The translations under genes and the position numbers were made by a program. The notes under the pieces were generated by a model that saw nothing but the letters and a program-made list of their open reading frames with translations, was not told the origin of the DNA and did no database searches. Below are positions 4,579-41,982 of a stretch of DNA of 45,359 bases, in pieces (positions within the stretch are counted from its first letter, which is position 1; each line of letters begins with the position of its first letter). This DNA comes from Escherichia phage Mt1B1_P10. The DNA lies in sequence record MT496971.1; one strand, 5' to 3'.

Positions 4579-4662
4579 TAGACCTCCTATTACTTCCCAA
4601 CCCTCCCTATGAAGATTGGCTAGTAATAGGCCGCTCAAAAGAACGGCACTATCTTATCTCTT

Positions 4663-4680
4663 CTATAGTGTCCAGTAAAT
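4663..4680 (-). promoter_or_regulatory. Phage RNAP promoter (SP6-type)
   Basis: Minus-strand ATTTACTGGACACTATAGAAG upstream of the 479-aa tailspike gene. Confidence 0.75.
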
Positions 4681-4709
4681 CGTAAGACACTGATACATAA
4701 AACTATGTA

Positions 4710-4907
4710 TTAATTATACCCGCGTTCTAGCGAAAGAATATACAAACCTAATTTTGTAGCGTCATGCTTACTAAAGCAGACCTTATCGTCCACCTCGTAA
4801 ACTGCCGTCAGCGTCGGCCCCAGAGGTTTCACCATTGCTTTCTCTGGTAACGCCTGCTGACACCCGGAAGTGGTCAGCGAACCAATCAGCAGGATTGTCG
4901 CTAGCAT
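4710..4907 (-). CDS. Candidate o-spanin (Rz1-like lipoprotein), 65 aa
   Basis: MLATILLIGSLTTSGCQQ... signal-like N-terminus with a Cys in lipobox-like context; starts inside the upstream overlapping ORF in another frame and extends beyond it (overlapped spanin architecture). Weak SD. Confidence 0.4.
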   Translation of the reverse strand: MLATILLIGSLTTSGCQQALPEKAMVKPLGPTLTAVYEVDDKVCFSKHDATKLGLYILSLERGYN

Positions 4908-5004
4908 GATTCGCTTCACTTTGTGCCTCCTTCTCTTCCTTCTTCTTCTTAGTGGCAAGCAGCAGGCCAATAAGACCTGCCACCACCTCAAGCACCTTAT
5001 TCAC
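4783..5004 (-). CDS. Candidate i-spanin (Rz-like), about 67-73 aa
   Basis: GTG start(s); N-terminal hydrophobic segment VLEVVAGLIGLLLA then a charged region; contains the embedded lipoprotein ORF. Shorter than typical i-spanins. Confidence 0.35.
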   Translation of the reverse strand: MNKVLEVVAGLIGLLLATKKKKEEKEAQSEANHASDNPADWFADHFRVSAGVTRESNGETSGADADGSLRGGR

Positions 5005-5146
5005 AGGTGATTACTTGGCATACCACGTCAGTGACGGAACCTTCCGTACCTTCACCTAGGTCTACGCCAAGACCTACAGAAACAAGAGCAATCACCAGTG
5101 CAACCAGTGCACCTACTACTTTCTTAGACTTAAACAGCTTTTTCAT
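4997..5146 (-). CDS. Small single-pass membrane protein, 49 aa (below track cutoff)
   Basis: ATG at 5146 with SD AAGGGAGA; MKKLFKSKKVVGALVALVIALVSVGLGVDLGEGTEGSVTDVVCQVITCE. Lies between the endolysin and the spanin candidates. Confidence 0.4.
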   Translation of the reverse strand: MKKLFKSKKVVGALVALVIALVSVGLGVDLGEGTEGSVTDVVCQVITCE

Positions 5147-5254
5147 TGCATCTCCCTTTCCATTGAGCTAACAAGTCAGAGTAATTCTTCCAGTCATCAT
5201 AGTTGCCACACTCGGCAGCTTGAGCAACCATGCGCTCGCACCATTCAATACATC

Positions 5255-5599
5255 TTACCATCGTGCACATCCATCTCTTACATCAATGTGGGTGAAATTA
5301 GGATAAGACCCAATGCCATATTTATTGGGGTAGCGTGCTGTAAGATAAGACCATACACGGTAAGGTGTAATGCCTTGTACCTTAATGTCAGCAGCCTTAC
5401 CAGTAAGATGCATGGAGTTCTTAGCTCCACCTACGTTGGCATTGTGCTTAGCACAGCGATGACCAGAGGTAATAACCACAGGGGCACCGAAATACTCACG
5501 CACATCTGTGACCACCTGTAGTAGCTCAGCATCAACTGTGGATGTACCGCACCCACAACGGCAAGCAAACTCTTTACGCTTGAAGTGTCTATTAAGCAT
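5255..5599 (-). CDS. Endolysin, peptidase M15-like zinc peptidase, 114 aa
   Basis: Motifs KEFACRCGCG, ITSGHRC...HNANVGGAKNSMHLTGKAADI resemble the M15 (D-Ala-D-Ala carboxypeptidase-like) fold. Start taken at the ATG with a GAGG SD (5599); the first ATG at 5611 is also possible. Confidence 0.8.
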   Translation of the reverse strand: MLNRHFKRKEFACRCGCGTSTVDAELLQVVTDVREYFGAPVVITSGHRCAKHNANVGGAKNSMHLTGKAADIKVQGITPYRVWSYLTARYPNKYGIGSYPNFTHIDVRDGCARW

Positions 5600-5620
5600 C
5601 ACCGACCTCATCTGTTACAA

Positions 5621-5908
5621 TTAAGCTACAGGGGTTACAGGTGTCTCCTCCATAGTGGTTGCATCCCAAGGGTCAGTTGGTTCACTACCACGTGCAATAG
5701 CGATGTACAAGGAGTTGTCTGCTTTCTCTACAGCAACCATGGAGCCTTTCTGTTTGCCAGATAAGTGTTTAATGTTGATAGGGTGATCTTTCTTCTTAAG
5801 GTCTGCTTCAGCAACAATAGGCAAAGGGATTGCCGTTGCAGTGGTTTGTACAGTTTTTACTCGAAAAGCTTGACCAGTAACAGTACCTGCGTTTCCATAA
5901 TTAGACAT
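5621..5908 (-). CDS. Hypothetical late protein, 95 aa; paralog of the next gene
   Basis: ATG with SD GAGGAG; shares MSN... N-terminus and an SGKQKG(S/A)MV...IAIA core with the 5921-6199 product. Confidence 0.6.
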   Translation of the reverse strand: MSNYGNAGTVTGQAFRVKTVQTTATAIPLPIVAEADLKKKDHPINIKHLSGKQKGSMVAVEKADNSLYIAIARGSEPTDPWDATTMEETPVTPVA

Positions 5909-5920
5909 GTAATTCTCCTC

Positions 5921-6199
5921 TTAAGCTGGGGTAATAGTTGTGACCGCTAATAACGTGGTCAGCCAATTGGAATCTTCTTTGCCATCAACTGCGATAGCAA
6001 TAACCAGTGTATCATGTGTATCAAGACACACCATGGCTCCTTTCTGCTTACCTGATTTGGTGGCATCATTAATAACATCACCTTTCTTCTCAACAGTGTC
6101 CTCGTAAACTACAGGAAGCATCAGGGCTTCACTCACAGGTTGTATCTGCTTACGAGCAGACTTACCGGTAAGGGGTTGTGTACTATAACTATTAGACAT
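5921..6199 (-). CDS. Hypothetical late protein, 92 aa; paralog of 5621-5908
   Basis: Start moved to ATG at 6199 (SD AGGAGA); the track start at 6259 is an upstream extension. Confidence 0.6.
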   Translation of the reverse strand: MSNSYSTQPLTGKSARKQIQPVSEALMLPVVYEDTVEKKGDVINDATKSGKQKGAMVCLDTHDTLVIAIAVDGKEDSNWLTTLLAVTTITPA

Positions 6200-6337: not shown

Positions 6338-6355
6338 CTATAGTGTCCAGTAATT
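6338..6355 (-). promoter_or_regulatory. Phage RNAP promoter
   Basis: Minus-strand AATTACTGGACACTATAGAAGG overlapping the large terminase stop; upstream of the paralog pair and lysis genes. Confidence 0.7.
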
Positions 6356-8983: not shown

Positions 8984-9161
8984 GCTTCTCCCTCCAAATC
9001 TTGAACTTATTATAAAACCAGTCCCCAATTTGCAACACGGTATAAATGAATGTTGCTATTAACACCCAATTATCCCAACTGATACCGAGGAAGTACCCAC
9101 CTGATACGAGTGCAGGTGGCGCAAGCTTCACACCACTATCTACCAGTTCGGAGTTAATCAT
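8967..9161 (-). CDS. Holin, class II (T7 gp17.5-like), 64 aa
   Basis: ATG with SD AAGGAGG; ...WVLIATFIYTVLQIGDWFYNKFKIWREKRE parallels T7 gp17.5 as recalled. Confidence 0.75.
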   Translation of the reverse strand: MINSELVDSGVKLAPPALVSGGYFLGISWDNWVLIATFIYTVLQIGDWFYNKFKIWREKRERTQ

Positions 9162-31922: not shown

Positions 31923-32204
31923 CATGTTAGACAAAATAAGTAGGAATAAGTTATTCATAAAGGCCACCCGTAAGTGACCTTGAGTATAACTCAGTCGTAG
32001 TTACCATCACAATCTGGGTCAATGCCAGAGAAAGCCCAGAATACTACCATAAATAATATGATCCCAAGAATGATAAAAGCAGTTTGCATCAATCGTAACC
32101 CTACTCTTCATCAGGTATATCTAATCGCATACTTCCATAGCAAGCAAGCATAAGGAATATAAGAAAGAAGATAGAGAATAGGCAAACAACATCAAACCTG
32201 TCCA

Positions 32205-34751
32205 TCAGTGTGTTTCCTTCCAGCTTGCACCAATCTTATACTCACCTGCCATCGGACAACGCATCTTCAAATAATGACCAGCCCAAGTCATTGCATCGGC
32301 AATGATATGCCCTGCACGGTGATAACGACGCTGGCAATGAAGTACACCAGCATCAGCATCAACGCTAACGAGATTTGCAGCAGACCACATACGTCCTTCA
32401 GAATCCACATGAACACGTTTCTCCTCTGCATCGAACACTGCTTTCACAGCAGCCTTCTCTGTTTCGAACCCTTCTAAGGTGAAAGGCAAGTCGTAGTTGA
32501 GATACAAGACCTCATCTTCAGGGACTTCCATCTGGATTTCATCGTGCACGTTAGCCACACCGCAAGGGTTTCCCATACTATCTAGAGCCACACCCTCCTT
32601 GCGCATCACTGCAAACGCTCTGACCAATGCGTATTTCATACACAAAGAGCCAGTCATCTGGAGTAATACGTTGAGCATAGTGTGCTCTTTAAGTTCACCA
32701 CCAGACATACGGATGCGACCCCAATGCCCATCAGGTGCTTGTAGATAGCCAAACTTGTTACCTTGTGCGATAACACTCTCACGAAGACGTGCAAGAGATG
32801 GTAGTTCAATCTCAAATCTTGCCACAACTTCCTTCATTTCTCCCTCAGTAACACCGCATACTGCTGCAAGGTTAGCTATACCAGATCCATAGAGGAAGGC
32901 ATATATAAATGTCTTCGCCATGTCACGCTTGGGAAGACCAGCCTTCATCTGGTTATGAGTATGTATATCGCCATGCAGTACAATATCTTGATACTCAGGG
33001 TCATTCATGAAGTGAGATAGTACACGTAGTTCAAGACCAGCACCATCACAACCAAGGATTAGCTTACCTTTACCTGCTATGAATAAATCACGTAAAGGAT
33101 ACAAGCCACGGGCAGGAATATTAACCACGTTACGATGACGCATACGGAACGTAGAAGTACCAATGCTAATAGCAATAGCTGGAACACGCCACTCTCCGTC
33201 ATCTTTGTCAGACGTAGGCCAACACCCGTACCTCTCGTAGTATTGCTGCGCATTGATTCCTAGCTCCTTGTTGAATGCTACAGGTACAAGGCCGCGACAC
33301 TTTCGTACACCAGCCTGCGAGGGCCACGCTCCCTTCTGATTGAAGGCTTCAACGTCACCACGGTTGAGTATCTGACCGCGACGGGATACGAGTATGTACC
33401 ATGCAGCGATACCCAAGCACCAATCAGGGACTGTTTTACCTTCACGTGCGGATCTTTCCTGCCATAAAGTAAGGGACTTCTCATTTATCTTACCACTCCA
33501 AGGCTGAGGTAGGACACCATTTTCATCAAGATAGGCTTGCTCTTTATCGTTGAACTCCACACCTCTCCAGCCATAGTCGTAGAGTACTTGCTTAACGGTG
33601 TCACGGTTTCCCAAGGGAATCTCTTCAAACGTAACGGGAGAGTAAGCGCCAATCCACTTGATACTTGGCGTGTCATTACGGTTTCCTCTAAGGTGAGGAA
33701 AGTCTTTCTTGACGCTAGCCGACCAATCACCAGACTTAGTAGTGACACTCCATACTGTCTTGCGATCTCCTCGTCTCTCTGCGTGAAGAAAGTGAGAGGG
33801 GTCAAGGACAGTAGGTATATTGTTGCTAGCTCCATACTCATTTGCGCGTTGGCATACTTCATTCTTTTCTTCCGGTTTAAAAGGTTTAGACTTGATACGC
33901 ATAGGCATGTGCGGACGGAACGCTGCGACTGTCTCATCAATCTTAGCGTCCAATTCCTCGCATCGTGCTAATGCTTTATCTATATCCAGACGGAATCCAC
34001 GCTCGGCCTGACGGCTCATCTCCAGCGCCACAATGGACTCCATGTGGAAGGCTGTCTCAATACCTAGGCCAGTGCGTTTATTCACGCCACGGCGTTTGTG
34101 CTCCGTCCATTCTCCGTTAAATAGCCAGAGGAATAGGTCACGGCCTATCGCCACGTCCTCGCGTACACGATGTACCATGTGGTCAGTTAGTTTAGACCAA
34201 TCCTCGTTCTCCGGCTTATAACGGCCTATACGAATGCCGTGCGCCTCAATTGAGTGAGGGGCTACGTTACCCATGCCTTTGGCGTATGCTTGCGGAGGGA
34301 GGCGTCTATCGGGGTTTAACAGGCGACTCATGACCAGCGTATCCATGACGCGTACCGGACACAGGTCAGCGCGGAGTCTGCCCTTGCCGCGTCTCTCGGT
34401 ATAGTTAAAGCCTTTCCAGATATCAGGGAATGCTTTCTCAAATAGAAGGCCGTCGTACCCTAGGAAGTTCTGCGACACAATAGCTTCACAGTGCTTCAGG
34501 AAGTTAACACCATCAACCAAGTCACCATCTTGATGACCTTCCCATTCCTTCAGGTGTTCTCTTGCTTCAGGGTCACGCATCTCATATGGGTCGAAGAAGA
34601 GGAACTCCTCAGTGGTGAGCAAGTCCATGCAGCAAATGATGTGTACATCTTCGCGATGACCGTAGCGGATAGCATCCAGCAGACCTTTAGCTTCCGCATC
34701 CATTACTAAGATACGCCCTTCTGCTTCCTTCTTCCAATCAATTGATTTCAT
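32205..34751 (-). CDS. DNA polymerase, family A (T7 gp5-like), 848 aa
   Basis: 3'-5' exonuclease motif VMDAEAKGL; Pol A motif B RDMAKTFIYAFLYGSG; motif C VHDEIQ. Start moved to ATG at 34751 (SD GGAG). Confidence 0.9.
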   Translation of the reverse strand: MKSIDWKKEAEGRILVMDAEAKGLLDAIRYGHREDVHIICCMDLLTTEEFLFFDPYEMRDPEAREHLKEWEGHQDGDLVDGVNFLKHCEAIVSQNFLGYDGLLFEKAFPDIWKGFNYTERRGKGRLRADLCPVRVMDTLVMSRLLNPDRRLPPQAYAKGMGNVAPHSIEAHGIRIGRYKPENEDWSKLTDHMVHRVREDVAIGRDLFLWLFNGEWTEHKRRGVNKRTGLGIETAFHMESIVALEMSRQAERGFRLDIDKALARCEELDAKIDETVAAFRPHMPMRIKSKPFKPEEKNEVCQRANEYGASNNIPTVLDPSHFLHAERRGDRKTVWSVTTKSGDWSASVKKDFPHLRGNRNDTPSIKWIGAYSPVTFEEIPLGNRDTVKQVLYDYGWRGVEFNDKEQAYLDENGVLPQPWSGKINEKSLTLWQERSAREGKTVPDWCLGIAAWYILVSRRGQILNRGDVEAFNQKGAWPSQAGVRKCRGLVPVAFNKELGINAQQYYERYGCWPTSDKDDGEWRVPAIAISIGTSTFRMRHRNVVNIPARGLYPLRDLFIAGKGKLILGCDGAGLELRVLSHFMNDPEYQDIVLHGDIHTHNQMKAGLPKRDMAKTFIYAFLYGSGIANLAAVCGVTEGEMKEVVARFEIELPSLARLRESVIAQGNKFGYLQAPDGHWGRIRMSGGELKEHTMLNVLLQMTGSLCMKYALVRAFAVMRKEGVALDSMGNPCGVANVHDEIQMEVPEDEVLYLNYDLPFTLEGFETEKAAVKAVFDAEEKRVHVDSEGRMWSAANLVSVDADAGVLHCQRRYHRAGHIIADAMTWAGHYLKMRCPMAGEYKIGASWKETH

Positions 34752-36552: not shown

Positions 36553-38538
36553 TCAGAACTCACTTTCTTCATCGAAGTTAGTCTCTTCTATAGTGTCCGG
36601 TAAATCAGGCACCTCTTGCTGCCTTGCTTCACCTGTATCAAATGACTTAGTACGGGCTTGTGGTTCCATCAAACGTCCGGTCTGAATGTCACCTTTAAGC
36701 ATGACCTTGGTTCCAGTCCAGATACCTTGGTCGCGGTCTTTGACACATGAGATGTACGTGGTAGTCCTTTCGTCAAGCGTTTCAGCTCTTGTATTACGCT
36801 CAATCCCCAAGGCGTAAGATGCCCAGAATCCGATAGCGCCTGAGCCTCGGAAGTCAGAAAGGATAACTTCGCCACCTTCTTCGTGTTGGGTACGGTTTGC
36901 CGGAGGACGTGTAAGGTGTGATACAAGGAATATAGTAACCGGGTGTCGGTCTTTGATAGTACCAATCCGCTTGACGCATTCATCAAGTGCACCAACCTTC
37001 CCACCAAAAGCACGCTCATCTAATTTAATCCCCGTTAAGTTATCAATGATGATATTAGAAATGCCCATAGCCTCAAACTCTAGGCAAGTTTGCTCTACCT
37101 TTTCCATCGAATAGTCACCCTCTAGGTCAGCCACAAACAGCTTACCTGTATCAGCTACATAATCAATGGCGGCGTTAGCTTCTTCCTCGGTGTAGTCGAA
37201 CACCTCACGGTATCCATCTTCTTTCGGGTCGTTGGTTGGCGGTAACTCAATACGCTTATCAATCCACTTGCCGATAAAAGCACGGGACACCTTGACCATC
37301 GGGTCTTCTGTAGAAATGATGCCTACAGATTCACCGTGTTCTTCAATGAGGTGCTTAACTACTTCACGAAGGAACTCAGTCTTACCTACACCAGACCCTG
37401 CACCTACAATGATAAGCTGGTTCTTACGAATACCTAGCGTTACCTTGTTCAGCTTAGGCCAAGGCCATGATAGCCCTTGCTCTGGACGTGCAGCCTTGAG
37501 CTTATCCCTTTGAGATGCGATAGATTTAATCTGGCTACCAAAGACTTCATCAGATGACTTGGCATTAAACCAAGCATCAACAAACTCTTTAGCCTTGCCA
37601 GCCATCAATGCCTTGTTAGCATCTTTGCAACCAGAAGGGTATTCAAGGATATAGGATTTGCCAGGAAACAGGCGAGCCGCTTGCTGATTCTGCTTCTGCC
37701 CTACCTCATCTCCATCAAAACCCCATATAATCTTCTTAAATTGGGCGATGTGTTCACGGTTCTGTACTATCTCTTCAAGGCAAGACTCACCTTTATTGAC
37801 AGACCATACATGGTAAGGCTGGCCTTCCCACTTAGTACCCTTGGCAGAATCAAGGAGCATTTGCTGTGCTGCTAGTGCATCCAGTTCGCCGCCCACAATA
37901 AGCAAGCAATCCTTTCGTCTTCCCTTGTCTAACACGTGAGACAAAGTATTCATACCGAAAAGATCTTGCATACCAAAGAGTTTACCTAAATGACCAAACT
38001 TAAAGTCTTTAGGTAATGTGCGACACTTAGCGCCTACTAGCTCACCTTTCTCGAATCGTGGATAGTAATGCCGTGAGACTCTACCATCTTCATCGTGTCC
38101 GACACGTACATCGTACAATGCGCAAATGTCGCCGCGAATGTGTCGGGAAACAAGATTCTTACGCTTAAGCGTGAGGAACCATTCAACATCAAGTTTCCAC
38201 TCTGTTTCTTGGTCTGTCCTTTCTTGCTCATTCATGACCTCCCAACGGTCTTTCATACGCATGGCACCTAATGCCAATGCGCGGTCTTCTGTTGTCTTAA
38301 TCTTCCCTTCTTTAATGAGGTCTTGGAACTGACTAACAGTCCACTTAGTTGCCCCAAGAGGTAGGTCTAGAATATTAGAAGACTCTCCAGCTTTCTCATA
38401 ATAAGGCTTACCATTACTATGAAAATGTGCACGGTTGCAATATTTACCGCCGTCATCAAACCAGATTAAATGATTTTGGCTACGATCGTGACCATTGCGA
38501 GCACATTCGGGGCACACAGAATTATTTATAATAGCCAT
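36553..38538 (-). CDS. DNA primase/helicase (T7 gp4-like), 661 aa
   Basis: N-terminal zinc ribbon CPECARNGHD...CNRAH; Walker A GAGSGVGKT; acidic C-terminus ending ...NFDEESEF. Confidence 0.9.
   Translation of the reverse strand: MAIINNSVCPECARNGHDRSQNHLIWFDDGGKYCNRAHFHSNGKPYYEKAGESSNILDLPLGATKWTVSQFQDLIKEGKIKTTEDRALALGAMRMKDRWEVMNEQERTDQETEWKLDVEWFLTLKRKNLVSRHIRGDICALYDVRVGHDEDGRVSRHYYPRFEKGELVGAKCRTLPKDFKFGHLGKLFGMQDLFGMNTLSHVLDKGRRKDCLLIVGGELDALAAQQMLLDSAKGTKWEGQPYHVWSVNKGESCLEEIVQNREHIAQFKKIIWGFDGDEVGQKQNQQAARLFPGKSYILEYPSGCKDANKALMAGKAKEFVDAWFNAKSSDEVFGSQIKSIASQRDKLKAARPEQGLSWPWPKLNKVTLGIRKNQLIIVGAGSGVGKTEFLREVVKHLIEEHGESVGIISTEDPMVKVSRAFIGKWIDKRIELPPTNDPKEDGYREVFDYTEEEANAAIDYVADTGKLFVADLEGDYSMEKVEQTCLEFEAMGISNIIIDNLTGIKLDERAFGGKVGALDECVKRIGTIKDRHPVTIFLVSHLTRPPANRTQHEEGGEVILSDFRGSGAIGFWASYALGIERNTRAETLDERTTTYISCVKDRDQGIWTGTKVMLKGDIQTGRLMEPQARTKSFDTGEARQQEVPDLPDTIEETNFDEESEF
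36588..36605 (-). promoter_or_regulatory. Phage RNAP promoter (within primase 3' end)
   Basis: Minus-strand ATTTACCGGACACTATAGAAGAGAC. Confidence 0.7.
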
Positions 38539-39354: not shown

Positions 39355-41982
39355 TTATGCGAAGCAATAGTCAGATACTAAGATTTCGTTAAGGTCAAAC
39401 TCTCCTTGCTCTGGCACTTGGATTCCGGTGTCTACTAACCAGCGCTCTTCATGCTCATCTAACAGGCTTTGCAGAGCGTTACGGCCTTGATACATCTTCA
39501 CCATTTCTGCCCTTAGACTATCACGTAGGTCTGCGGTGCGGCCTGCATGAGTACCGAAAGAGTCATGGATAACTGCAATGGAGGTAATACCTTTATCCAC
39601 TAGGTCGCACACCGTTAGAATCAGGTGGCTAGCATCATGGCCGTGCACGAAGTTAGGAGCAGCAGCGCCCATCATAGCCGTTTCATCCACTACGTCCGTT
39701 TCAATCTGTAGACTCATCTTGATTTCTCCCATCAGGCAAGTGGATACGCGGAGCATATCAGTAGCCATAATCTTTTGTTGCAGAATGAAGCCTGTGGGCA
39801 AGGTATACTCTAAGCCTTCATTTCTTTTAGCTGCGAAACGGGCAAGTTGACGAATCATTTTCATTGCCACTATAGGAGCTTTAACCACTTCCGAAATAGA
39901 AGGCCAGATTAAAGCTGTCATATAGTTATAAGCTGCGCTAGGTGTCAGGCTGTCTTTGCGGTCATTATCAAAAGGATGTACAGGATTGGCGGTACGCCCT
40001 TCCGCAATAGCCCGTTGGGCCTCTTTTTCTTCCAAATCAACGATATAATCAATCACTGACTCACGGCAGGTTAGACGTGTGCTGCCGTAAGGTAGTGTCA
40101 TTACGGGCTTTTTGGTCAGGCCGCGAGTGATTCCTATCATATCCCACGCACTAGCCATGCTACGCAGTTCCGCACCTGTTAAAGTCACGCTGCCAGAAGT
40201 GAAGGTTTCCGCATCCTCTGCATTCATGTATGCATAATTCTTCTGAATTACTACCTGCGCAACGGCACCATAAATATCTTGAGGGGAGTCAGAGGGCTTA
40301 AGGTTTACCGCTTTCGCACCTACTGCATCGCGTAGCATAGCACTGTAGTGCTGGATACCAGAACAACTACCATCTTGATGGACGGGGAGGTGCGTCATGA
40401 ATTGGTCTTGCGTGCCTTCATCCAGTGCATCCAGATAACGCGCATATTCAAAGCACCAAGCAAGGAAGCCGTAAGGGGAGTCGGCATTTACCCATTGAGT
40501 GAAAGTAAGCGGATCCGCTGCAATGTCGCGGCACATGTCTTGAAATTCACTATCCAGCACGTTAGCGGTGCGCACGTCAAAAGTCTTCTTATCCCAACCC
40601 CAGTTATTAGCCCCGTTCACCAAAAACCATTTAAGCGCCTCAGCGCTATCAAGGCGCTGCCCTTCGGTAAAACGGAGCAATGCCTTGCCTAAGTCGTTTG
40701 ATTGCGGAGAGAGCGTGCTAGATTGCGCGTAGACGCGGCTGCGGCTGTCCAGTGCATACACGAAGTAGATGGCGTCAAACTGGCTGTATTTACGTGCCTG
40801 CCCGACCATGCGGACGGTCGCCGCCGATTTGCTGCCGCGCTTAGTTTCAGCGGTATACAGCTTGGTACATTCGCCTTTCCAGTTGATGAAGGCTTGCCAT
40901 TGTTCCGGCGTTAGCATCTCTTTAAGTTCACGGCCTCGCAGGTGCTGGAACTCTAACGGCACTGGATTAGCTGGCTTGTTCTCACGGTCGATGAGCGGTT
41001 TAAAGGAAGGCACACCATAGCCGAGGTCTAGACGTATAACGTCCTCCACAACCTGTAAAACCTCTTTATTAACCTGCCACTTAGTTGCCTGCAAAGCGTT
41101 AACAGCCTTATAAACGGCTGGCATTTGCTTTTTGGTCAGCTTGCGGACGTGCTCACGATTGCCTTTTACCAGACGAATACGGCTTGCTACTTTCTCAGTA
41201 TGAAACCCACCGTTAAAAGGTGATACCCAAGGGCGGGGAGGTATAACGCAAGGTGCATAGGCAGGGCTGAGCTGCGCTACATGTTCCTTAAATGCAGTTA
41301 TCCACTCTCCAACATGTTCACTGGTCTGTAAATAGTAAACACCATGCTTTCCGCCGTTAGTGCGCAAGGTACGAAGGAAGACAGGTTGACCATTGAAGAA
41401 TACACTATTCTCCAATATTTCGAGCAAGGTCATACCGATTTGCAGCAAGGTGTCTTTAGGCCATGCCTCCCAACGGGAGAAATCCGCGTCACGGTCAGCA
41501 ACAGATTTCTCAGCTACTACCGCTACGTTGTGCGCATGACGATAAGATTTAGTCTTGCTAGCCTTAAGTGACTTCTTCACTTTCTCAAAGTACTTAGCTG
41601 CGTGACCTTCCAGCTTGCTAAAACGTACTTGGTCTTCGATGCGGTCCGCTACATTCATAGCGATTGCTTGTAAGGTAACGTCTGTATTCAGCATATCCAT
41701 AACGATTTTCATGGTGATATATGCTGCCACTTCGTTTCCTACGCAGTTAATGAAAGCTAATGCACGTGGTGCACGACCTCTCTTGCCTTCGTATTCTTCC
41801 TTGTAAGCCTGAATACCTTCCGCCATAGGTGCGATTAGTTCGGACAATAAGCGGCGATTCCATGCCGTGTCTGATTCATTACCGGATGCAATCTGGCGTT
41901 GTTGGTCCGCTTCAAAGCGACGGATGCCGCCGTTAAACATTTCTTCTTCAAGTTGAAGTTGAATAGCGTGTAGGTCTTGCAT
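39355..41982 (-). CDS. Single-subunit DNA-directed RNA polymerase (SP6-type), 875 aa
   Basis: N-terminus [32 protein letters not shown] matches SP6 RNAP as recalled; catalytic motifs [16 protein letters not shown] and [11 protein letters not shown]; ATG with SD AGGAG. Confidence 0.95.

Follow-up and report, generated by a model that had tools for sequence, protein, structure and literature searches.

The lysis cassette considered here lies on the minus strand of Escherichia phage Mt1B1_P10 (sequence record MT496971.1), of which the whole stretch of 45,359 nucleotides (nt) was analysed and is called "the window" below. Read in the direction of transcription, the cassette holds an M15-type endolysin gene followed by four small genes: orf46; gp44, for a membrane protein of 49 amino acids (aa); orf73, an overlapping 73-aa frame; and gp45, a lipoprotein gene. 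Coordinates are collected in Table 1. What is new is that orf73 is coding, that it is coupled to the gp44 stop, that it is present with gp45 in 54 of 54 cases examined, and that the slot upstream of it is variable. These four properties make the overlapping orf73/gp45 pair the best candidate for a miniature spanin at this locus. We propose, with a probability of roughly 45% and thus a little short of even odds, that the orf73 product could be the inner-membrane partner of gp45 in a miniature two-component spanin.

By its sequence, the locus is a late lysis operon of the kind standard in SP6/K1E-like phages. The window is that of a Vectrevirus, and its lysis region is 93–95% identical to those of K1E and ULINTec6. 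A megablast search with positions 4600–5950 returned 121 phage records, headed by ULINTec6 (94.8%) and then several Vectrevirus isolates; identity was 93.3% for K1E and 85% for K1-5. The cassette is already known and catalogued: it corresponds to K1E gp43–gp45, is present in the SpaninDB list of phage spanins, and has parts assigned to PF08291, PF10746, phrog_4712, phrog_9219, and phrog_8971.

For the analysis of reading frames and selection, 29 distinct relatives from IMG/VR and GenBank were aligned, and ratios of nonsynonymous to synonymous differences (pN/pS) were calculated by the Nei–Gojobori method over all pairs, with codon-bootstrap intervals where given. Each small gene is under purifying selection solely in its own frame. 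All 29 relatives keep the orf73 frame open, over at least 62 codons. In the 77 nt that separate the gp44 stop from the gp45 start, hitherto taken as intergenic, its pN/pS is 0.41 (0.27–0.55), against 1.14 and 3.15 in the other two frames; over the segment encoding the gp45 signal peptide it is 0.26 (0.11–0.52), with the gp45 frame at 0.98; in the remaining overlap the values are 1.02 for orf73 and 0.56 for gp45. Because this purifying selection is specific to its frame, orf73 is a real, protein-coding gene, with its first ~48 residues under selection and its tail unconstrained over mature gp45. Constraint is split between the two genes, orf73 being constrained where it runs over the permissive gp45 signal peptide and mature gp45 where it runs over the free orf73 tail. 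A similar partition is described for lambda Rz/Rz1, where the parts of one gene that are sensitive to mutation lie over tolerant parts of its partner (PMC6139136).

The orf73 start is a GTG at 5004, inside the last codons of gp44 (tGTGAAtAA), and because it falls within the gp44 stop region we regard orf73 as translationally coupled to gp44. An earlier note on this DNA had remarked that its inner-membrane spanin candidate had GTG starts only. This holds in the window, where orf73 is also without a Shine–Dalgarno sequence, but an ATG stands at the homologous start in JSF38, Reminis, VL73, Nufs112, and R20L. It could be argued from the GTG-only start, the missing Shine–Dalgarno sequence, and the lack of annotation in K1E, K1-5, LL11, and Premi that the 73-aa frame is an untranslated chance frame over the gp45 gene. 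That explanation is extremely improbable, being effectively refuted by the selection seen in the orf73 frame both in the 77 nt and over the gp45 signal peptide. Against it also stand distant relatives in which an orf73 ATG is coupled to the upstream gene, the retention of the orf73 motif in Vibrio phages where the gene stands alone, and the prediction of orf73 by gene callers in 49 protein clusters.

The orf73 product begins with a Leu-rich helix that runs on into a K/E-rich stretch; after a break comes a short helix with the motif (N/D)PxDWFxxHF, here NPADWFADHF. Its AlphaFold2 (AF2) model has helices at residues 3–31 and 38–45 and a disordered tail, with a mean predicted local distance difference test (pLDDT) score of 60. 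A disruptin-like cationic peptide was considered for orf73 and rejected on the net charge of residues 1–48, which is about −1. Separately, positions 1980–2510 of stretch L049 hold a 176-aa open reading frame (ORF) that adjoins an M15-like endolysin and has an N-terminal lipobox and a C-terminal transmembrane domain (TMD), the topology of a u-spanin. Its match to the orf73 hidden Markov model (HMM; E 3e-13) falls in a K/E-rich stretch before the TMD and is non-collinear, so that it is probably compositional.

The gp45 gene is in the +1 frame of orf73, shares 137 nt with it, and continues for 73 nt beyond the orf73 stop. A Shine–Dalgarno sequence (AGGAGG, 4931–4926) lies 6 nt ahead of the GTG at 4919; an ATG at 4907 is an alternative start. 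The signal peptide, MKRIMLATILLIGSLTTSG, precedes a Cys, giving the lipobox L-T-T-S-G/C with Gln at +2 and a mature length of 50 aa. No other ORF of the whole window has a credible lipobox. The earlier note had posited an overlapping Rz/Rz1-like pair with an embedded lipoprotein gene and had suggested checking the lipobox and the conservation of the overlapping frames. Both checks came out in favor of the pair: the signal peptide is standard and the lipobox Cys invariant as a sequence pattern, the orf73 frame is open in all relatives, and the pair occurs in 54 of 54 cases. The pair is thus real, conserved, and under frame-specific selection; the part that has to be amended is the geometry, since the lipoprotein gene is overlapped and not embedded.

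The lipobox Cys is found in every aligned homologue, 1–2 columns off in three sequences of one alignment, and at +2 stands Q, G, S, A, V, T, or K but never D. The +2 rule for lipoprotein sorting is established, and as no homologue has Asp at this position, sorting to the outer membrane is to be expected. With its lipobox, invariant Cys, and lack of Asp at +2, gp45 has the predicted properties of an o-spanin lipoprotein. The mature protein has a PxKP motif after the lipobox, a Cys in ..KVCF.. that most lineages keep (R20L and X29 do not), and an invariant C-terminus, (D/E)AxxLGxYIxxLERGY; pN/pS in the unique 3' part of the gene is 0.17. AF2 places a signal helix, ~20 disordered residues, a beta-hairpin at 40–49, and a helix at 51–65, with a pLDDT of 62–75 in the C-terminal part. 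In PHROGs, gp45 belongs to phrog_8971, "Rz-like spanin."

Pfam gave no significant match for any of the four small proteins, and searches of large protein databases with gp45, orf73, and gp44 retrieved only close SP6-like relatives (35, 49, and 23 clusters, respectively), with no informative names beyond "O-spanin." A tblastn search with gp45 against annotated phages reached 165 phage records. Among these are phages of Proteus, Klebsiella, Pectobacterium, Edwardsiella, Aeromonas (Tola), Ralstonia (Reminis), Erwinia (VL73), Vibrio cholerae (JSF38), Pantoea (Nufs112), Pseudomonas (MR4), and Salicola (CGphi29); temperate myophages of Vibrio are found too. Bacterial genome contigs, scanned for prophage genes resembling gp45, gave no confirmed match. 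A pattern scan of IMG/VR added 17 divergent loci, and the module is also present in environmental contigs (L104–L115).

The surroundings of the pair vary across this set. Tola, Reminis, VL73, JSF38, and MR4 have a lytic transglycosylase endolysin in place of the M15 peptidase, followed by orf46-like, gp44-like, orf73-like, and overlapping gp45-like genes, save that no orf46-like gene was detected in VL73. In several of these transglycosylase phages the orf73-like ATG overlaps or abuts the gp44 stop (ATGA- or TAATG-type). The temperate Vibrio myophages (eight records) have orf73 and gp45 homologues ~565 nt apart and keep the motif without any overlap. The order in R20L and X29 is a holin candidate, an amidase, a 76-aa phrog_9685 membrane protein, a 58-aa orf73 homologue that ends right after the motif (..EDPASAFNEHFNSNKKGDQ), a reverse-strand gene, and the gp45 homologue; the PHROG matches for this arrangement are phrog_9219 for orf73 (E 3.9e-17) and phrog_8971 for gp45 (E 2.3e-20).

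A census with family HMMs found an orf73-like ORF on the same strand with 54 of 54 distinct gp45-like genes, overlapping in 52 and separated in 2. The slot upstream of orf73 is of the gp44 type in 40 of the 54 and of the phrog_9685 type in 8; 4 have a 65-aa protein with two TMDs that matches phrog_34682 "holin," and the other 2 a 56-aa protein with two TMDs. The orf73 start overlaps or abuts the stop of the upstream membrane-protein gene in the window, Tola, JSF38, Reminis, VL73, and Nufs112, as it does in R20L, X29, CGphi29, L108, L109, and L112. In L104, a 74-aa soluble ORF lies between the two. HMM searches for gp44 found none in the complete R20L genome, nor in the ~3.2 kb around the CGphi29 match. 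The phrog_9685 gene is coupled directly upstream of the orf73 homologue in R20L (L067/L070, 25566–25796), CGphi29 (L066, 1205–1393), L105–L107, and L114–L116. This family is unannotated; its members are acidic at the N-terminus and basic at the C-terminus and have a TPTxxDD motif and a single long TMD, a predicted topology (N-out/C-in) that resembles that of a holin.

The gp44 product itself was correctly picked out in the earlier note as a 49-aa single-pass membrane protein. Its one strongly hydrophobic 19-residue segment has a Kyte–Doolittle 19-residue mean (KD19) of 2.76, the usual threshold being 1.6, and a Hessa dG19 of −1.6 (Hessa values here and below are unweighted 19-mer sums, a crude measure). 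In its unique part, pN/pS is 0.29 (0.20–0.39) in its own frame and 1.56 and 1.84 elsewhere. A Shine–Dalgarno sequence, GGGAG, lies 5 nt upstream at 5156–5152. Five Lys residues stand within positions 2–9, and the predicted topology is type II (N-in/C-out), with an acidic 21-aa periplasmic tail that ends in C-x4-C-E. Both Cys residues (C43 and C48) are kept without exception in 10 diverse homologues, that of VP4 among them. The type II TMD and the periplasmic C-terminal domain are, by prediction, those looked for in an i-spanin. The family is phrog_4712 (E 3.2e-27), and hhalign aligns gp44 residues 3–44 with residues 6–46 of the two-TMD family that fills the same slot elsewhere (probability 90%, E 1.6e-6), on which account gp44 looks like a truncated relative without the second TMD. 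Its most likely role, to judge from these comparisons, would be that of an interchangeable component, a holin-family derivative for hole formation or timing; possibly it is a membrane partner that helps to anchor orf73, and a role as i-spanin is less likely.

The first of the small genes, orf46, was absent from the earlier note. It overlaps the endolysin stop and the gp44 start and encodes a conserved soluble protein with a C..WC motif (phrog_1312, E 3.8e-18). In its unique part, pN/pS is 0.36 (0.26–0.47) in its own frame versus 0.92 and 1.30 in the others. Independent in-frame stops occur in LL11 (TGG to TGA) and in the metagenomic contig L008 (TAT to TAG), and given these nonsense mutations orf46 is probably a dispensable accessory; it is possibly a lysis regulator. 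In the Proteus phage Pm5460 (L029, 2772–3116), the orf46-like and gp44-like genes form one frame with no stop between them. This joining amounts to a 1-nt difference from Premi (L074, 547–832) and reflects either a true gene fusion or an error of sequencing; as a single-base difference it is too weak to serve as evidence that orf46 and gp44 cooperate.

On the endolysin and the holin the earlier note was right. The product of 5611–5255 is an M15 endolysin by its match to Pfam Peptidase_M15_3 (PF08291; E 1.3e-32, 112.5 bits against a cut-off of 23.2), belongs to phrog_894 "endolysin" (E 1.4e-44), and is 95% identical to K1E gp43. Metal-ligand motifs are legible (SMHxxGxAAD, that is, H-x6-D, and a C-terminal THID), and neither a signal nor a signal-arrest-release (SAR) sequence is present. 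The M15 protein of the SP6 group has been named an endolysin without biochemical evidence (PMC4837284). Distant relatives of the endolysin (L031–L063) come from unrelated phages with conventional lysis genes of their own and are uninformative on the small genes. The 64-aa protein at 9161–8967 is a T7-like holin (PF10746, Phage_holin_2_2; E 1.5e-27, 95.5 bits against a cut-off of 25.4; phrog_920 "holin") and lies 3.36 kb upstream of the endolysin start. The earlier note had pointed to this split between holin and endolysin. It is the ordinary layout in phages of the T7 supergroup: the holin, between the tail-fibre adaptor and the small terminase, occupies the position of T7 gene 17.5, and the lysis genes of T7 are dispersed.

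Table 1. Positions of the lysis genes and of neighboring features in the window (all on the minus strand, listed in the direction of transcription)
Feature	Position	Strand	Size and identification
Tail-fibre adaptor	10136–9171	−	321 aa; Phage_T7_tail
T7-type holin	9161–8967	−	64 aa; T7 gp17.5 family, K1E gp38 homologue
Small terminase	about 8983–8684	−	99 aa; DNA_Packaging_2
HNH endonuclease	8682–8239	−	147 aa; HNH_3, E 2.6e-11
Large terminase	8291–6354	−	645 aa; T7 terminase RNaseH-like domain
Phage promoter opening the late lysis unit	6355–6333	−	AATTACTGGACACTATAGAAGGA, K1E/SP6-type
Small paralogous genes, gp41/42-like	6259–5921 and 5908–5621	−	112 and 95 aa
Endolysin	5611–5255	−	118 aa; K1E gp43 homologue
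orf46	5270–5130	−	46 aa; SP6 gene 55 homologue
gp44	5146–4997	−	49 aa; K1E gp44
orf73	5004–4783	−	73 aa; GTG start; phrog_9219
gp45 lipoprotein	4919 (GTG) or 4907 (ATG) to 4710	−	69-aa precursor; K1E gp45
AT-rich hairpin	4710–4693	−	ATACATA-GTTT-TATGTAT
Second phage promoter (tailspike gene)	4680–4658	−	ATTTACTGGACACTATAGAAGAG; tailspike gene next

Every gene of this part of the window is on the minus strand (Table 1). The layout matches K1E for gp38 and gp41–gp45, the K1E order being gp37 tail fibre, gp38 holin, gp39 and gp40 terminase, gp41, gp42, gp43 endolysin, gp44, gp45, and the tailspikes. The promoter consensus, ATTTACTGGACACTATAGAAGAG, has eight minus-strand matches across the window, with none expected by chance. 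The copy that opens the lysis unit has three mismatches to the window consensus and lies directly downstream of the large terminase (terL) stop; the copy ahead of the tailspike gene has none and bounds the lysis transcription unit at its end. Just before this second promoter, the hairpin, with a 7-bp stem, begins inside the gp45 stop codon and is kept in most relatives; its function may lie in RNA processing or in weak termination.

Some observations on the neighboring genes are recorded here in their own right. The two paralogues ahead of the endolysin belong to phrog_2725, have no Pfam match, and are labeled "acetyl-CoA acetyltransferase" in RefSeq, which looks like a propagated misannotation because ~95 aa is far too short for such an enzyme. 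A single phrog_2725 gene precedes the endolysin in Tola, Reminis, and JSF38. The HNH_3 gene lies between the small terminase gene (terS) and terL and overlaps the terL start; in K1E, a homing endonuclease instead interrupts terL (genes 40A, 40.5, and 40B), and we therefore take these to be mobile endonucleases at different sites of the packaging module. Elsewhere, in the early region, an ATG-started ORF of 34 aa on the coding strand (32101–32205, minus strand) encodes a very hydrophobic peptide (MDRFDVVCLFSIFFLIFLMLACYG..) and may be a small early membrane protein.

Public annotation of the small genes is in conflict. RefSeq and PHROGs name gp44 a "holin" (K1E, K1-5; phrog_4712) and gp45 an "Rz-like spanin," with orf73 not annotated. 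In LL11 and Premi, annotated by the Texas A&M Center for Phage Technology (CPT), gp44 is the "i-spanin" and gp45 the "o-spanin," again without orf73. The revised SP6 record AY288927.2 has gp44 as "i-spanin" and assigns "o-spanin" to the orf73 frame (gene 48, 39607–39804), leaving gp45 (39670–39880) unannotated; the gene 48 product is without a lipobox, and in stretch L072, where it spans 1364–1561, the true lipoprotein lies at about 1427–1637 in the +1 frame. In Nufs112 the three are a "transmembrane protein," "Rz-like," and "Rz1-like," respectively, whereas in ULINTec6 both gp44 and orf73 are hypothetical and gp45 is not annotated. The K1E and K1-5 records omit the 46-aa and 73-aa genes. The SpaninDB tables of Kongari et al. 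list K1-5, K1E, and SP6 as "separated" gp44 and gp45 pairs, which the curators flagged as "too small?" and "too short"; UAB_Phi78 is entered there as "overlapped," its 69-aa i-spanin being read in the orf73 frame (PMC6139136). SpaninDB thus contradicts itself, because the orf73-frame protein is the i-spanin in UAB_Phi78 and gp44 is elsewhere. A search of the literature found no experimental report on gp44, gp45, or the 73-aa ORF of K1E, K1-5, or SP6.

The late promoter at 6355 drives the gp41/42-like paralogues, endolysin, orf46, gp44, orf73, and gp45, in that order. If the orf73 and gp45 products do form a spanin, lysis might proceed as follows. The T7-type holin would permeabilise the inner membrane and release the signal-less, cytoplasmic M15 endolysin; and once the wall had been degraded, the outer membrane would be disrupted by the pair, with gp45 lipid-anchored in the outer membrane and orf73 at the inner membrane. 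Contact would be made between the orf73 NPxDWFxxHF motif and the invariant C-terminal helix of gp45 (..LGLYILxLERGY). The motif is effectively C-terminal, since the 58-aa form in R20L ends just past it, and in known spanins the subunits contact each other C-terminus to C-terminus (PMC6139136). The genes are adjacent in the manner of spanin genes: orf73 and gp45 overlap, gp44 is close by, and all three are downstream of the endolysin in one promoter-bounded unit. The pair is further supported by gp45 being the sole lipobox ORF of the window and by the fact that no spanin of the T7 18.5/18.7 type is known from this phage group, SP6, K1E, and K1-5 having no homologue of T7 gp18.5 (PMC4837284).

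Several points weigh against this reading, and the chief weakness, as far as sequence can tell, is that a canonical TMD is not conserved in orf73. Its hydrophobic run is 12–15 residues long; KD19 is 1.33 here and 0.7–1.45 across the family, and the Hessa 19-mer sum is +8.0 here and +5.4 to +14.4 over the family. By comparison with lambda Rz, for which KD19 is 2.63, the anchor is weak. In L104, L106, L108, L115, and JSF38 the segment is amphipathic (hydrophobic moment, muH, 0.5–0.6), with internal Glu, Lys, Arg, or Asp. Given these weak scores and the amphipathic distant members, the family as a whole does not conserve a type II TMD. The TMD of the T7-family holin also scores +5.2 on the same crude Hessa measure, so that the SP6-like members of the orf73 family could still be inserted in the membrane. 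A KKKK cluster directly after the hydrophobic run would disfavor export of the C-terminus; lambda Rz is likewise K/R-rich after its TMD. The positive-inside rule, tried as an argument against an N-in orf73, proved indecisive because the net charges of the flanks are ambiguous.

Beyond its anchor, orf73 offers a conserved part of only ~30 aa, with neither a periplasmic Cys (gp45 has one and gp44 two) nor a predicted coiled coil, no dedicated coiled-coil predictor having been run. A coiled-coil periplasmic domain long enough, with the o-spanin, to bridge the periplasm is not to be found in either candidate, with ~30 residues after the anchor in orf73 and 21 in gp44. SpaninDB gives zero coiled-coil segments for the 49-aa proteins of K1-5, K1E, and SP6 and for the 69-aa i-spanin of UAB_Phi78 (PMC6139136). 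The AF2 models of gp45 and orf73 both have a low mean pLDDT, 60. That the 52 overlapping pairs are inherited together is trivial, and retention without overlap is found in one clade only, the Vibrio myophages. In VP4, a T7-like Chatterjeevirus (L071, about 36628–36965), a 47-aa gp44-like protein (phrog_4712, E 1.6e-22) is encoded directly upstream of an unrelated 65-aa phrog_10167 lipoprotein in the T7 18.5/18.7 slot, and no orf73 or gp45 homologue is present; this is the chief observation at odds with a gp44 that is no i-spanin. Finally, in our assessment the naming of gp44 as i-spanin by SpaninDB and CPT counts on the same side.

These last two points lead to a rival reading, in which gp44 would act as the i-spanin and join gp45 in a "separated" mini-spanin, with orf73 as an accessory lysis protein, such as a cytoplasmic or peripheral regulator, or as a third subunit. 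On topology, gp44 is the textbook molecule, with N-terminal Lys residues, a TMD that is strong by KD19 and dG19, and a periplasmic tail whose invariant CxxxxC could be set beside the conserved periplasmic Cys of gp45; periplasmic Cys residues are widespread in spanins (PMC6139136). The VP4 arrangement, with its gp44-like protein ahead of a lipoprotein in the T7 spanin slot and no orf73, favors this explanation, as do the annotations of LL11, Premi, and SP6 (AY288927.2), the SpaninDB entries for K1-5, K1E, and SP6, and the want of a convincing TMD across the orf73 family. We nevertheless consider it unlikely. In 14 of the 54 gp45-bearing lineages gp44 is missing and unrelated small membrane proteins take its place; the 21-aa tail is of a size that the SpaninDB curators themselves doubted; gp44 is remotely homologous to the N-terminal two thirds of the two-TMD "holin" family of the same slot; and SpaninDB contradicts itself by entering the orf73-frame protein as the i-spanin of UAB_Phi78.

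That same slot suggests that gp44 might be a second holin, pinholin, or antiholin that times lysis with the T7-type holin, as the earlier note had offered, and this would be compatible with an orf73/gp45 spanin. The suggestion gains some support from the holin-like slot: its other occupants (phrog_34682 two-TMD proteins, N-out/C-in phrog_9685 proteins, and 56-aa two-TMD proteins) all have holin-like features, hhalign links gp44 to the two-TMD family at 90%, and phrog_4712 and the RefSeq entries of K1E and K1-5 bear the label "holin." Moreover, R20L and the SP6-like phages each have a separate holin candidate, as expected of a holin/antiholin pair. Yet the holin labels are predictions, profiles rich in TMDs inflate remote-homology scores, and the VP4 arrangement better suits a spanin-like gp44. 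Holins usually have a charged cytoplasmic C-terminus, and gp44, with its single TMD, N-terminal charge, and acidic Cys-bearing periplasmic tail, is unlike characterised holins. For these reasons we hold a dedicated holin or antiholin function to be doubtful.

More radically, gp45 may not be a lysis protein at all but a superinfection-exclusion or receptor-masking lipoprotein like Llp of T5, in which case the phage would be spanin-less or use another route. Members of phrog_8971 are indeed known from sequence alone, the periplasmic parts of the system are far shorter than those of canonical spanins, and spanin-less phages have been discussed (PMC6139136). We judge this quite improbable, because gp45 sits beside the endolysin in the late lysis unit of unrelated phages (podoviruses whose endolysin is an M15 peptidase or a transglycosylase, and temperate myoviruses that have an amidase), always occurs with orf73, mostly in the overlap typical of spanins, and has an invariant extreme C-terminus.

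Returning to orf73 as the partner of gp45, the pair need not work in the manner of the lambda coiled-coil spanin. It is conceivable, although on balance unlikely, that a minimal system is made up of the 50-residue lipoprotein and a partner of ~50 residues whose N-terminus is no true transmembrane anchor but an amphipathic helix resembling a fusion peptide, and that gp44 and orf73 together form a composite inner-membrane subunit, giving three components. Translation of the partner would then be coupled to that of an interchangeable small membrane protein (gp44, phrog_9685, or the two-TMD type). Such a complex would act only after removal of the cell wall, because it is too short to bridge an intact periplasm.

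Although real, the cassette is ordinary; what interest remains attaches to the annotation conflict and to a possible very small, perhaps three-part, spanin. One widely sequenced module (more than 150 phage records) carries three incompatible annotations, a real lipoprotein is left out of some records, and orf73 is ignored, called "Rz-like," or mislabeled "o-spanin." Relatives of K1E, K1-5, and SP6 serve as therapeutic and biocontrol phages and as engineering chassis, and therefore knowing which small genes are needed for complete lysis matters to phage design. If the proposal is true, orf73/gp45 would be among the shortest catalogued spanins, some in SpaninDB being equally short or shorter, and would constrain models that require the periplasm to be bridged before membrane fusion.

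It remains to set the cassette beside known systems. Those of the Molineuxvirinae (K1E gp43–gp45, K1-5 43–45, SP6 46/55/56/48) have the same genes in the same order at 85–95% nucleotide identity, with the holin in the same place (K1E gp38) and promoters of the same type, so that nothing material differs except the annotation; in SpaninDB they stand as the "K1-5" i- and o-spanin families (PMC6139136). With T7 the window shares a PF10746 holin between the tail-fibre and small terminase genes and the dispersal of the lysis genes; it differs in having an M15 peptidase after the terminase where T7 has the class II amidase gp3.5, and an HNH endonuclease, with no 18.5/18.7 homologue, between terS and terL. 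Lambda Rz/Rz1 is alike in that a lipoprotein gene lies near the endolysin in the +1 frame of the gene for an N-terminally hydrophobic protein, with complementary constrained and permissive regions in the two frames. The sequences are not similar, however, and the window genes are overlapped, not embedded; Rz has ~130 residues after its anchor and two coiled coils, whereas orf73 has ~30 conserved residues and none, its anchor is weak or amphipathic, and it has no Cys. The hairpin and helix predicted for gp45 likewise differ from the Pro-rich, unstructured chain of Rz1.

The Vibrio phages offer two further comparisons. VP4, ICP3, and N4 belong to the "mini-spanin" family of SpaninDB, and the VP4 homologue of gp44 shares its K-rich N-terminus, TMD, and CxxxxC, although the lipoprotein there (phrog_10167) is unrelated to gp45, orf73 is absent, and the pair sits in the T7 18.5/18.7 slot. 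In R20L, X29, and phi 2, which are of an unrelated phage type with an amidase endolysin and a phrog_9685-type gene upstream, the 58-aa orf73 homologue and the gp45 homologue are ~565 nt apart with a reverse-strand gene between them, and, as in the window, both lie downstream of the endolysin.

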